Below are positions 4,947 through 34,998 of a DNA stretch of 64,000 bases, piece after piece. Each line of letters begins with the position of its first letter. The stretch's first letter is position 1. The DNA is from Podarcis vaucheri (taxonomy: Eukaryota), in the NCBI GenBank assembly GCA_965113315.1, contig OZ220379.1; one strand, written 5' to 3'. The position numbers were made by a program, and so were the translations under genes. Below the pieces are notes generated by a model. The model ran no database searches and was not told the origin of the DNA. It worked only from the letters and a program-made list of their open reading frames with translations.

Positions 4947-5446
4947 TAGTGGTACCTCAGTTTACGAACATTTCGGAAGTCGAATGCTTCAGTTTTCAAA
5001 TGCCGAAAACCCAGAGGTAAATGCTTCCATTTTCGAACGCACCTCAGAAGTCGAACGGCTTCCGCTGAGTCCCCCCCCCATTTTCTCTATTGAATTTGCA
5101 GGCCGCCCTTTGCGCCTCAGTTTTCAAAGGTTTTAGAAGTCAAACAGTCTTCTAGAAATGAGTACAGTGGCACCTTTGGTTGCGAACAGGATCCGTTCCG
5201 GAGGCCTGTTCGCAACATGAAAAGAACGCAACCCGCAGTGGCGCATCTGTGCACGCGCGATTTGCGATTCGTCGCTTCTGTGCATGCGTGTGACGTCATT
5301 TTGCGCGTCTGCGCATGCGCGAGCGGCGAAACCCGGAAGTAACCCTTTCCGGCAGTTCCGTGTCGCCGCGGGACATAACCTGAAAGAAAGTAACATGAAG
5401 CGGACGTAACATGAGGTATGACTGTACGTTCGAAAACCAAGGTACA
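4947..5446. mobile_element. Tc1/mariner (Tigger-like) MITE with a second MITE (5165-5424) nested at a TA
   Basis: Outer TA|TAGTGGTACCTC ... AAAACCAAGGTAC; inner TA|CAGTGGCACC...GTATGACTG|TA. Confidence 0.8.
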
Positions 5447-5980
5447 AACCAAACAACAAACCAAAACAAAAAGGGAAACACACACCATTTTAGAAAGGGG
5501 CAAGATAAGACGCGTAAGCACAAAGCATTTAAAATAATTATCATCACAACTCCTTGCACTCTGCCCATTCTTCCCGCCCAGGGTGGCCCTGCCCTCAACC
5601 TGCCCCTCATGTGGCTGGCACATGCTGTGGGGCTGGGGCTTAGTGGCAGCAGCCTCTCCTCCCCCTGGCCCACTCTCCAGGAGCTGCTACAAGCTGCTGA
5701 AGGGAAGAGGCCTGCCACAGCAGCCGTGGAGAAGCAAGGAGATGCTCCCTCGCAGTGACTGGCATCATCATGGTTCTCACTTGGGACAAACGCCGGCTCC
5801 TTATCCTCCCCGAGCTCAGTGCTGGTAGCGCTGGCGGGGAAAATAGGGACATCCCTAGATCAAACCAGAAGCCAAGATGGCTTTGATAATTCCAGGACTG
5901 TCCCTGGAAAATCAGGACGCTTGGAGGATATGTTGTTCTATGCTAACTGGTTCGTGCAGGAAAAGGATATGTTTCAGTTA

Positions 5981-14609: not shown

Positions 14610-14835
14610 GTGAGGTTACAGGGCCTTCTCGGCAGTGGTGCCCTCCCTGTGGAACGCCCTCCCATCAGATGTCAAAGAGATAAAGAATTACACAACTTCT
14701 AGAAGACATCTGAAGGAAAGCCCTGTACCAGGAAGTTTTTAATGTTTTACTATGTTTTTACATGTGCTGTGCTGCCCAGAGTGGCTGGGAGAACCCAGCA
14801 AGATGGGTGGGGTATGAATTATAAAATTATTGTTT
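14610..14835 (+). mobile_element. L2-clade 3' fragment
   Basis: Same tail family (TAGAAGACATCTGAAGG...CCCAGAGTGGCTGG). Confidence 0.85.
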
Positions 14836-30470: not shown

Positions 30471-30495
30471 ATACTTTCAGTGCAAAAGTACTTAC

Positions 30496-30555
30496 CCACC
30501 GACTACCGTCTTGCCCTGCTTTGTTCCCTTTAACCTTGGGGAAAACAGCTCCATT
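30496..30555 (-). CDS. FKTN: Fukutin coding exon 2
   Basis: 60 nt, TTAG|...|GTAAGT, NGAVFPKVKGNKAGQDGSRW; phase 0/0. Confidence 0.92.
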
Positions 30556-31036
30556 CTAACAAAACCAAACAACAGAGAAGAGGCTTTGCAAGTCAAGTCC
30601 TAGTGCTACCACCAAGACAAATGAGAAGTGAAGCTTTGGTGATATTTTTCAAAAATATTGCATTTTTTAATATATATTTGAACTAATCTATTTTCAGCTC
30701 AAAGAGTACACACTTCCTCTGTTGACTAACCTTCTGACATACTACACTGGAATCAAACTATAAAGATAGCAATGGAGCTAGAAAGCTCCACTCCACTTGA
30801 CCAGAAAATGGCCAGACCGTAACTTGGAACATATGAAATCTGACTTTAACCATGTTTAAGCCATATTGATTTCATTGGAATTTACTACCAAGCAAGAATG
30901 TTCAATACCAAGCAAGTTTCAATCTCGCGTCTCCCATCTTATTTTAACAAATCACTATAAACACTTGTTTGGATTCGTTCTGCTGAATGTAGCTGTGTGG
31001 TGTTGTTGTTTTTAAGTGAGCTGCCAGAGTTCTTAC

Positions 31037-31141
31037 CCTTGGTGATAAATAGTATTTATAATAGTACAGCTGGAACAGGAGAAAGACTGAGCTTGTCAAA
31101 GTAAGAAGGCCCAAAACCACGTTCTTGTTAATTCTCTGCAT
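31037..31141 (-). CDS. FKTN: Fukutin coding exon 1 (start codon; cytoplasmic tail and signal-anchor TM)
   Basis: Encodes [35 protein letters not shown] (105 nt), then donor GTAAGA. The exon extends 5' as UTR to an acceptor (CCCCTCCCTTTTCCCCCAG), first exon base 31240. Confidence 0.97.
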
Positions 31142-31197
31142 TAGTCTTCAGGGCTCTCTTGACTATCAGTTGAAAGCAGGAGCTTTGTTCTTCTCAT
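31141..31197 (-). promoter_or_regulatory. uORF in FKTN 5'UTR ([18 protein letters not shown]), stop overlapping the main ATG (TAATG)
   Basis: ATG AGA AGA ACA AAG CTC CTG CTT TCA ACT GAT AGT CAA GAG AGC CCT GAA GAC TAA, within the exon starting at 31240; the last A of TAA is the A of the FKTN ATG. Confidence 0.75.
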
Positions 31198-31968
31198 CTT
31201 TTCAAGTAGCCTACCAAGTTCTCTCCAGTGGAAAATAAAGCTGGGGGAAAAGGGAGGGGGGAACTTGAATTCAATGAAGTGTTTGTAACAGTTTTATATA
31301 AGCGAAAATCATTGTTTTGTGCAAAGCACATTAATGCTTGTTCAAATTACTTTTAAGTCTCTTAACAATGAGAAACAGCAAAGTGCTTGTGTGAATCCCT
31401 GTTGGTTAGTAGCATAACACAGCTAGGTTCTCAGATTCACCCCCCCCCTTTCTCCCAAAAGTGTTTGAAAAAGGAGGAGCTAACCTTTTTCAGGTGCTTG
31501 AAGACAGCATCCCTCCAGGGAACTGCACTAATCAGGGAGTTATATTCCCCTCTTGACTCATTCAGTGATCAATCTGATGACAGGGACAGAGAATTTGCAT
31601 CCTTATCAGGGTGATGGGAAGAGCAGAGAGGGATAAACCTCTCCACCAAATCCCAGTGCCATGTCTACTTTTAATCACTCCCTTTTAAATTATTACTGTC
31701 TCTGCTAAAAATCAATGGGGTTTTGCTGGCGTTAGGGTCACACTGAGTAATTCCTACCTGCAACACACTATCAAAAGTACAAAGCAATCATAAACTAAGT
31801 TTGTTCTTTCGGGGCTTGTCATGGGCTCCCACATCCGGTGCTTAAAGCACATTCAATGCACATCTATCCCCATGCCTCCAAAGAATCCTAGGAACTGTTG
31901 CTTAAAGGCGCTGGAAACTGTAGCTTTCCCCTCAGAGCTACAGTTCCCAGCAGCTTCTCACATACACA

Positions 31969-32385
31969 CGCCCTCCCATCAGATGTCAAGGAGATAAAGA
32001 AGTACACAACTTTTAGAAGACATTTGAAGGAAAGCCCTGTATCAGGAAGTTTTTAATGTTTGACGTTTTACTATGTTTTTATATGTGCGGCGCTGCCCAG
32101 AGCGGCTGGGGAAACCCAACCAGATGGGCGGGGTATGAATTATAAAATTATTATTTTATTTTATTACATTTGAATACCGCCCTTCATCTGCAGATGCCAC
32201 AACTTAAGAATACGAGATAAAAAAAACAACCAAGAGGATAAACAGCTGCACAACTTTAAGAAGACATCTGAAGGCAAAGTTTTTAATGTTTTATCATGTT
32301 TTTAATATTCTGTTGGAAGCCGCCTAGAATGGCTGCAGAAACCCAGTCAGATGGGCGGGGTATAAATAATAATTTATTGTTATTA
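31969..32385 (+). mobile_element. Two adjacent L2-clade 3' tails in FKTN intron 1
   Basis: 31969-32165 and 32252-32385 match the same tail family. Confidence 0.8.
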
Positions 32386-32569
32386 CTAATAAGCCAAATG
32401 GCTCCTTGAACCAGGGTTACAGTGGCCAAAACACAATGCCTAGTTGCCATTTTGGAGCCGGATATTTCCAATACAACTTTTTGGGGTTTCCAATTGCGCG
32501 GATAAAAATATTGTGGGTAGAATTCGACAGGATGTGTTGTTAGTGTGTGGAAACTGGCAAGATCCAAGG

Positions 32570-33360
32570 ATCCCAAGGCAGGCAGGCGCCTCCAAGGCGG
32601 CAAAATGCGCCTGGCGAATTTCGAACGCTGCCCGGGGGGGGGGCGGGGCGGGGTTGGGCTAGAGATGACCCTCGCAAACCTCCCCGTTTAACTTTGTTTA
32701 GCAGCTGCCTTATTTAATCTTGTCCTCGTCCCCCAACCTTGTCCCTGGGGCAGCGTTAAAAGAGGAGCCTAAGGCGAACCCAGCAAGAAAGCCGCCCCAC
32801 TAAAAAAACAACAACACGCCTCACAGGAACTGCCTTCCTCCGCGTCCCTCTTACCTGACGGCGCGCCAGGCAGGTAGGAGCCGAGCGACGGGCTTCTGCC
32901 GTAAAGCGAAGCCCGCCCTTTACGGCACCGGCCGCCTAAGGGAGGCGCGAGGAGAACATAGAGTTAAGACGGGGGGGGAGGGAAGGCGCGCAGGTTGCCT
33001 TTTCCCCGCCCTTGAAACCTCATTTCCGGTTCCCGTTCGAAGGGCCTCTCTGTTTGCAAGGAGGGACGGAAAGCGGGGGTGGGGTTGTGCCCCGCACTGT
33101 TCGGTGGGGAGCCGGAGGTGTTGCGTCGCTTCACTTGAGGCTCCGACCCCCTTTGGGGGGGGCGGAATTAAAGCCGGCGCCCGGTGTGCGCGTGCGTGGA
33201 AGATGCTGCGTCCTCAGCTGTTCCCAACAAGCCGCAGCTCCCAACGTGTCTGAGGCTGCTGGGAGCAGAAGGGGAGGGAAGGTCCCTTCGGTTTGACTTC
33301 CCCTCCTGGAGGTGCACTGCGTTGCCTCTCGACGTAGAAGGAGGCAGACATCGGGCCGAC
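32570..33360 (-). promoter_or_regulatory. FKTN: CpG-island promoter and probable non-coding first exon of FKTN (donor CAG|GTAAGA, last exon base 32855)
   Basis: The clearest CpG-dense non-TE stretch in the window. GC boxes, ETS-like CCGGAA near 33025, NRF1-like TGCGCGTGCG near 33187, and a strong minus-strand donor. TSS not locatable. Confidence 0.8.
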
Positions 33361-33424
33361 CTTTTGGTTACTTTTCATAGGTGTTCGACAAATGGATACA
33401 CTAAAAATAAATTGCTAATGTAGT

Positions 33425-33426
<2 letters not shown>

Positions 33427-33471
<45 letters not shown>
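33427..33471. repeat. (TAA)n microsatellite upstream of the FKTN CpG island
   Basis: Seen directly. Confidence 0.95.
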
Positions 33472-33472
<1 letters not shown>

Positions 33473-34998
33473 GTAAAGTTAAGAGGGGGGGACACCCATC
33501 CTGCAAACTTGCACTCAGGAGGCATGTGTGTTATTTTTGCACGTGCTGTGCGGTGTCCTGCAGCTCCTTTAACACGGTGGAAGGCACCAGTTTGAAAATG
33601 GGGAGACACAAACTGAGGCAGCTACACCTCAGTTCATTCATTCATTCATTCTGGCCCTAGAATGTTATGAGTTGGTCCCGTTGGAAGGGACCCGGAAGTT
33701 CTATTCCAACCCCCCCGCAATGCAGGAATCGACTAAAAAGCATCCCTGGCAGGTGGCCATCCAACCTCTGCTTAAAAAAACCACCAAAACAACCTTCAAG
33801 GTTTTTTTCACCACCTTCTGAGTCATTATTTTGTCATTTCATACGATTTTTATACCGCTTGACTTAAAAACAAACTCACCTCAAAGTGGTTTACTAAAAG
33901 ATGAAAAAACATGGGGGGGGGAGGAGACACCACCACAGCCCTACTTTAAAAGCATTGCAAGAGATAAAATACTGAAACAGATTAAAATTACTTAAAAGTT
34001 TCTAAGGTAGGCTTATCTGGACAAAAAATTTCCAGAGGCATCAAAAGGAGCACAGCAAAGGGGCCTGCTTTATTTCAATAGGCAGAGTTTAAATTTATCA
34101 GGTGAGGTTGCAGCACAAGGACTGGAAATGCTATTCGTAACAACTATTTGCAAAAACAAAACCCACACCACCATCCTAGCAGCTGTTCTAAATTCAGGTC
34201 AAGCAGGACAGCTTCATCCTAGGCTAAAAAATGGAAGTGTCTAATCTACACTTCATTATTGACAAGCTGTGCCATAAGTGTGGTAAAACAAAACAACAAC
34301 AACCCGCTTGGAACTAAATTGATTTTTCTCATCTGAGAGCTACTGGAAGGCTGATCCAGCACTACCACCATACAAATATATGGTTCCCCAATTCATATCT
34401 TTAAAACAGTTAAGCCCTATGTCTGAAAAGATTGAATATGAACACAGCAGCCTCATTGGCAATTACTATTAGCCCAACAATGTTTCGGTTGTTTCCCCTT
34501 CACTGTTACCTATGTTACTACCAATAGCAGTATATATATTAAGTACCAGATCAATAACTCACATACATTAAAGACAGCAAGTGTCACTCTATTTTCAGAT
34601 AGTTGCCCTCTCTAGTGAAAGAATTAAAAGGTGAAGGAATAATTTGACTAAATATTACTAGCCTCCCTGTTATCTAAGTTTGCTTTATACGTCTGCTAAA
34701 ACCGCCCAAGAGTTACAGCATTTATATTGTTTTTCAGGCAGACCTCCCAAAGCAGTTTACATAAACATATTTTATTGTAACTTCTAATACATACAGATAT
34801 AAATATATGAGAACGACTTGTTTGTTTAGGAAAAGCTGTTACTGCTGCTTCTCCCCTCCCAAGGCAAGAACCTCCAGAGGCCCTTGTTTCCCCAGCAATG
34901 TTCAGGCAAAGATCTTCCATACCCAAAGAAAGCCACTTCTCTATAGCATACTATCCTCAGAAAAAGCACGACAAAAGATGTATACGAGTTTTCAAAAG

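Follow-up and report, generated by a model that had tools for sequence, protein, structure and literature searches.

The FKTN locus and its spliced leader

The window, a stretch of 64,000 nucleotides from Podarcis vaucheri, carries the fukutin gene FKTN on its minus strand. Nine exons, running from 31141 to 21566, match the Podarcis fukutin P0266, and the closest named proteins to the fukutin of the window are from lacertid lizards. The exons of FSD1L lie upstream on the same strand, at 59640-39800. The fukutin start is preceded by a non-coding first exon and by the leader part of exon 2, which contains a uORF (upstream open reading frame; Table 1). The 3' end of exon 1, with the donor CAG/GTAAGA, lies inside a CpG island located by a CpG scan at about 32500-33500. 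A second CpG-rich patch (5001-5750) is possibly the promoter of another gene. Intron 1 holds, at 31968-32390 and 31905-31956, two adjacent copies of an interspersed repeat and a 21-bp inverted repeat, and further copies of the interspersed repeat are found at 14654, 15124, 16492, 24123 and 9240. A run of 190 N lies near 2400-2600.

Table 1. Features of the 5' part of FKTN in the window.
Feature	Positions	Strand	Evidence
FKTN non-coding exon 1 as assembled, no ATG	32855..32902	-	Loose ends behind 31243 match this exon in X23, X13 and X14
Exon 2, 5' part, leader before the uORF	31198..31240	-	Acceptor use in RNA reads and contigs
FKTN uORF, ATG and TAA included	31141..31197	-	Start and stop the same in three related organisms; human counterpart c9riboseqorf63
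TAATG stop-start overlap	31139..31143	-	Read from the sequence
End of exon 2: fukutin codons 1-35 with the start and the hydrophobic anchor of the N-terminus	31037..31141	-	100% to residues 1-35 of P0266
FKTN exon 3, 60 nt	30496..30555	-	RNA joint and match to P0266

RNA was mapped on positions 30480-31880, from raw runs of a close relative (X23 with 14 reads, X24 with 5 reads) and from contigs of two further organisms (X13 and X14, for which the RNA origin is a guess). Four raw reads of X23, together with a contig from X13 and another from X14, run through the acceptor at 31240 into exon 1, and the joint between exons 2 and 3 (31037/30555) is present in all four runs. The contigs of X13 and X14 include 46-48 nt of exon 1 and do not mark the cap site. 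The uORF is part of the spliced FKTN mRNA, with minor splice forms possible at this low read depth. The preliminary description had placed the uORF in the mRNA and proposed RNA as the check on the acceptor; the reads and contigs that cross this joint bear it out. An alternative acceptor, 3' of the uORF start codon (uATG), was rejected: no such joint occurs in the four runs, at their low depth. In the Podarcis lilfordi model P0267 (33268-31037, minus strand), the promoter region is read as coding and neither AUG of exon 2 is included. This model is likely a prediction error, and no joint of its type was seen in the four RNA runs at that depth.

The uATG (31197-31195, context AAG ATG A) is the first AUG in the spliced mRNA, and the assembled leader of 147 nt has no other ATG. 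Further upstream, the next one, at 32959, is beyond the 5' ends of the assembled contigs. The uORF comprises 18 sense codons in a frame different from that of fukutin, and ends with a TAA (31143-31141) whose last base is the first base of the fukutin ATG (31141-31139, CTA ATG C). The distance between the uORF stop and the main AUG is -1 nt, without a spacer for reloading initiator tRNA. Without the TAA, the frame would extend by 15 codons into a 33-codon frame overlapping fukutin. This anatomy, as originally described (uATG at 31197, 18 codons, a base shared by TAA and ATG), was recovered in full when the minus strand was read again. The fukutin frame of the leader contains four stops, which rule out an N-terminally extended fukutin as the cause of the conservation described below. 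Three Myotis myotis models (P0121-P0123) have FSD1L fused in frame to fukutin by way of this exon's leader part, a fusion that the same four stops would prevent in the window.

The first AUG past the fukutin start (30554-30552, minus strand, +107) is out of frame, just inside exon 3, and a likely sink for ribosomes leaking past or resuming after the uORF. Lacertid models of 441 residues (P0001 and, by their length, P0260 and P0271) leave out exon 3 without a change of frame, and this form would lack the out-of-frame AUG as well.

When the 99-nt leader part of exon 2 was shuffled 20,000 times, a uORF ending in TAATG or TGATG arose in 1.4% (dinucleotide) and 2.9% (mononucleotide) of the shuffles, equivalent to one genome per 35-70. 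An overlap in a single genome is within the reach of chance, and many such cases are expected per vertebrate genome. Because this chance is not tiny, conservation must carry the claim.

Conservation of the upstream frame

The leaders of other vertebrates were read indirectly, from database fukutin models that are extended upstream and print the leader in the main frame. Among 434 proteins, 346 have the N-terminal motif, of which 302 start at the motif and 44 are extended (26 mammal, 7 frog, 5 fish, 3 bird, 2 caecilian and 1 salamander records). Many of the extended records are isoforms, the 26 from mammals representing about 15 species, and the leaders visible by this route are those with an open main frame. 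Amino acids also leave codons open, as Asp may be GAC and Leu may be CTY.

All 26 mammal records have an Asp-Glu pair, with room for gATGa, 15-18 codons before the Met. This is the sole pair common to all of them that is able to hold a uATG, and it is always preceded by Lys or Glu, which fixes an A at -3. The window has Lys-Asp-Glu 19 codons before the Met. The length of the uORF changes in whole codons, by plus one in the window, minus one in one bat and minus three in a mole rat. Directly before the start, 22 of the 26 mammal records have Leu, which puts TAA or TGA on the start if the third base is a purine. In the four mouse-type records this codon is Pro, and Met-Ser would bring a TGA one codon later (AUGA) if the Ser is AGY. 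A Val codon pair could conceal an earlier stop in nine of the ten mammals tested.

Outside mammals, the seven frog records begin with Met-Met, a certain TGATG, and the uATG is not visible in them. Leu precedes the start in all five fish records, both caecilian records, the salamander and one of the three birds, and the salamander has an Asp-Gly, at -15 codons, with room for a uATG. In two waterfowl, Pro precedes Met-Gln, where no stop is possible. Asp-Glu is absent from the three bird models, which may use other exons.

The leader of the window was aligned to 14 of the 44 extended records, one or few per lineage, and compared with 2,000 shuffles. The extensions of frogs, fish and caecilians are too short to align, hence outside the 14. 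The p values were 0.0005-0.042 for all ten mammals and 0.53-1.0 for the three birds; at 0.19, the salamander was not above chance. By this alignment, the leader is homologous between the lizard and mammals, and the mammal records fit the same uATG with a stop on the start, outside human at the amino-acid level. The conservation throughout amniotes that was initially proposed fits the lizard, human and all 26 mammal records, and breaks down in birds, where three of three models are without the layout. A mouse translatome supplement has no 'Fktn' row, which is neutral as to mouse. When metagenome and viral contigs were scanned for the fukutin-start pattern, a single unrelated match was found (L001, with no fukutin frame), and thus no leader DNA of a relative.

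The human ORF is already known as a catalogue row. Table S1 of PMC10032668 lists c9riboseqorf63 in FKTN (chr9:105574980-105575033, 54 nt, 17 residues) with the biotype 'uoORF'. The same coordinates stand among the hand-curated ATG uORFs of PMC9943669 (data S1), whose criteria include an initiation peak, as 'non-overlapping'. As these two published lists record, the human counterpart is translated. Both biotype labels, the final Asp and the length make a one-base overlap with the human fukutin start very likely; the final Asp excludes an AUGA arrangement, and 54 nt agrees with the 18 codons found in horse and bats. The human and lizard uORFs occupy the same exon position of the same gene, with 17 versus 18 codons; aligned by eye with a single gap of one codon, their peptides agree in 8 of 18 columns, and both frames end in Asp-stop. 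A similar human uORF had been mentioned in the preliminary description; this was essentially right, c9riboseqorf63 being translated and its one-base overlap deduced as above. The human leader additionally has an exon with a second ATG uORF, of four codons (chr9:105573675-105573689), which is missing from the splice pattern of the lizard; the curated human set also includes three non-ATG uORFs (PMC9943669). Two ClinVar variants of uncertain significance fall within the human uORF, with the start and stop unaffected. The uORF offers a way to interpret 5' UTR variants of FKTN.

In the same catalogue, c9riboseqorf63 is labeled 'primatomorpha - young' and 'de novo' (PMC10032668). A primate de novo ORF should have no ORF structure outside primates and colugos, and the lizard frame is intact and homologous. 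For the 'young' label, ORF structure was scored within primatomorpha only, and age was assigned by a BLAST cut-off (PMC10032668), which, we infer, a 17-mer can hardly reach. The label reflects the method. That a catalogued 'primate de novo' Ribo-seq ORF is homologous to an intact lizard frame shows concretely how the age of very short ORFs can be underestimated. Our literature search, outside of which most subscription papers fall, retrieved no functional study of the FKTN uORF and no homologue from a non-mammal. Likewise, no publication was found that describes the homologue in the lizard, the retention of the overlap or the clash with the label 'de novo', the conservation supplements PMC7530721 and PMC13275300 (Table 11) lying outside the search.

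Among the close relatives, eight differences were placed, all of them in the 99-nt leader part of exon 2; the 105 coding bases are free of placed differences, and there are no indels. Four further differences were counted, with positions unassigned. Four sites vary within the uORF, and three of them alter a residue (Pro16Leu, Leu6Phe and Thr4Met). The uATG, its -3 base and the TAATG are untouched by the placed differences. One contig, from organism B, has two changes that make codon 4 of the uORF an ATG (31188-31186, minus strand), a second in-frame start that would end at the same TAATG overlap.

The uORF peptide of 17-18 residues could itself act, by stalling or as a microprotein, and its 8 of 18 residues matching human, the final Asp included, would agree with this. 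We find such a function scarcely credible. Purifying selection on the peptide, which defines a CPuORF, is not apparent, as three of the four variable sites replace a residue (a small sample) and the human PhyloCSF is negative (-72 in primates, -280 in mammals), with 0 mass-spectrometry studies listed (PMC10032668). The mole rat, moreover, has a deletion of three codons. As far as the compared sequences tell, the start, frame and stop position are kept and the peptide is not.

The conservation might also be passive. The purine-rich stretch at the uATG would then be retained because it enhances splicing, and the bases preceding the ATG for their role in start context, with the uORF as a by-product of little effect on output. 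The uATG does lie within an A/G-rich run, and such runs are typical of splicing enhancers. Leader positions outside the uATG are likewise conserved across mammals, the overlap occurs by chance at the rate given above, and birds appear to manage without the layout. Nevertheless, we consider this explanation quite unlikely. Upstream AUGs are generally selected against, most strongly close to the main start, so that a uATG retained with its -3 A and its frame from lizard to human is unlikely to be neutral, and the human uORF draws initiating ribosomes. Overall, the FKTN uORF is real, spliced, homologous between lizard and human, and probably regulatory.

Translation of fukutin behind the uORF

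The uATG had been described as stronger than the main start. In the table of a FACS-seq model (PMC4299517), the order is reversed, with 75 (68-82) for the uATG context and 91 (84-98) for that of fukutin, on a scale where the consensus is 100 and with values from mammalian reporters applied to a lizard. The uATG is ahead only by the -3/+4 rule of thumb. According to this mammalian model, the intermediate strength of the uATG would be leaky enough to let ribosomes by, and the main start would be adequate for those that scan on. A hand calculation of leaky scanning with the constant 0.86 (PMC4299517) estimates initiation by about 65% of the ribosomes at the uORF and by about 28% at fukutin, compared with 78% at fukutin without the uORF. 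The predicted cut in fukutin is 2.8-fold (2.4-3.4 across the stated interval).

We favor, with moderate confidence, the reading that the old lizard-human uORF is a conserved, peptide-independent repressor bypassed by leaky scanning. The uATG would capture most scanning ribosomes, which would then not serve fukutin, and the fukutin made would come mainly from the smaller share that leaks past. Ribosomes stopping on the TAA would sit on the fukutin AUG and, because there is no spacer in which to reload initiator tRNA, would mostly be released or restart at later AUGs, the first of which is the out-of-frame AUG at +107. The mature mRNA has an out-of-frame AUG before the main start, as expected of a repressive short uORF bypassed by leaky scanning, and the spacer of GCN4/ATF4 uORF1-type reinitiation is missing here, at -1 nt. 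Two reviews, one of them PMC5972666, describe leaky scanning as the usual route left when a uORF overlaps the main start; reinitiation of the ordinary kind depends on a spacer, and a one-base overlap likely precludes it (PMC5972666). The proposal that fukutin must depend on leaky scanning or reinitiation is supported.

Several points weigh against a brake. Plain repression needs no stop exactly on the start, and the 33-codon frame without the TAA should repress too. The overlap appears kept in the lizard, human and most mammals and, as TGATG, in the seven frog records, and a brake explains least why the stop remains on the start. By analogy, the bornavirus X protein, made mostly by coupled reinitiation, would also speak against it, as would the three bird models without the layout, and B7H6, which has the same layout without stress-linked translational control (PMC6952340).

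A tentative possibility is that ribosomes finishing the uORF retain their initiation factors, move back to the AUG beneath them and produce a substantial part of the fukutin without a viral-type tether. The uORF would then meter or feed fukutin and not merely block it. The persistence of the stop-on-start geometry as the sequence drifts is consistent with such a coupling: TAATG in the lizard and, by deduction, in human, the Leu codon of most mammals, fish, caecilians, the salamander and one bird, the TGATG of frogs, and the AUGA that the mouse-type records would have. In the X/P mRNA of Borna disease virus, the uORF ahead of X has 8 codons and a one-base overlap, and about 70% of X is attributed to coupled reinitiation (PMC2766071); a coupling for which no tether is known is therefore possible. 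A review names coupling as a possibility for SLAMF1 (PMC5972666). On the other hand, exons 1 and 2 contain no exact match to the UGGGA of viral couplings, the two one-mismatch sites being at -75 and -55, the latter the uATG itself. As for the stem (motifs 2/2*), 181 of 200 and 192 of 200 shuffles fold better than exon 2 itself (z +1.25 and +1.55), and there is no spacer. The T at -2 may be retained for start-site strength alone. Furthermore, the uATG is not demonstrable in frogs or fish, and the geometry differs in mice and is absent from the two waterfowl models. With neither UGGGA nor stem and no spacer, leaky scanning past a repressive uORF is the best reading.

Still more tentative is a relay as old as vertebrates and free of TURBS, in which fukutin would come largely from ribosomes that have read the uORF and restart on the overlapped AUG, the overlap being swapped in evolution among TAATG (lizard and most mammals), TGATG (frogs) and AUGA (mice) with the coupling retained. 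If the relay is true, a disease gene would provide a clear cellular example of reinitiation coupled to a preceding short uORF.

The choice matters for FKTN dystroglycanopathy. If the uORF is an approximately threefold brake, weak alleles could be made to yield more fukutin by blocking or editing the uATG; the same step would lower fukutin if coupling dominates. Because these effects are opposite, the mechanism must be settled before therapy. The natural lizard, human, mouse, frog and duck variants form a ready mutant series.

Comparison with known stop-start systems

Conserved uORFs are common; the FKTN case, in a disease gene, opens cellular stop-start coupling to direct testing. It is a test case for whether such coupling acts on cellular mRNAs without a viral tether, a question left open by a 2018 review. 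One-base overlaps in cellular mRNAs are in print for SLAMF1 and embryonic GAD (PMC5972666) and for B7H6 (PMC6952340). To call stop-start coupling poorly documented for cellular mRNAs, as the preliminary description did, was overstated in view of these published overlaps. We do not count Shank1 as a parallel, as its UGAUG overlap joins two uORFs and not a uORF to the main start.

The likeness to influenza B BM2, suggested at first, did not hold up. FKTN has the UAAUG pentamer in common with influenza B M1/BM2 and the calicivirus TURBS, and its stop and start overlap, where the viral type has them overlapping or within about 20 nt. Coupling of the BM2 and calicivirus type follows a long upstream ORF and requires UGGGA (motif 1) and a stem (PMC5972666, PMC10275272), whereas FKTN has 18 codons upstream, no UGGGA and no stable fold.

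Among the known systems, the Borna disease virus X/P uORF resembles that of FKTN in its shortness (8 codons), its one-base overlap and its reading by mammalian ribosomes (PMC2766071). It differs in being viral, with a coupling that was shown by mutants and is regulated by P and DDX21 (PMC2766071). The uORF in the B7H6 5' UTR has its stop overlapping the main start in a human mRNA, like FKTN, and a B7H6 reporter is described as having no translational control under ER stress (PMC6952340). A cellular match is the last uORF of the SLAMF1 long isoform, with 29 codons and the same one-base overlap (PMC5972666). There, the overlap is UGAUG, the uORF is one of four, and a TURBS-like sequence is present (PMC5972666). 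FKTN, in comparison, has a single uORF in the lizard leader, no UGGGA, and a deep conservation.
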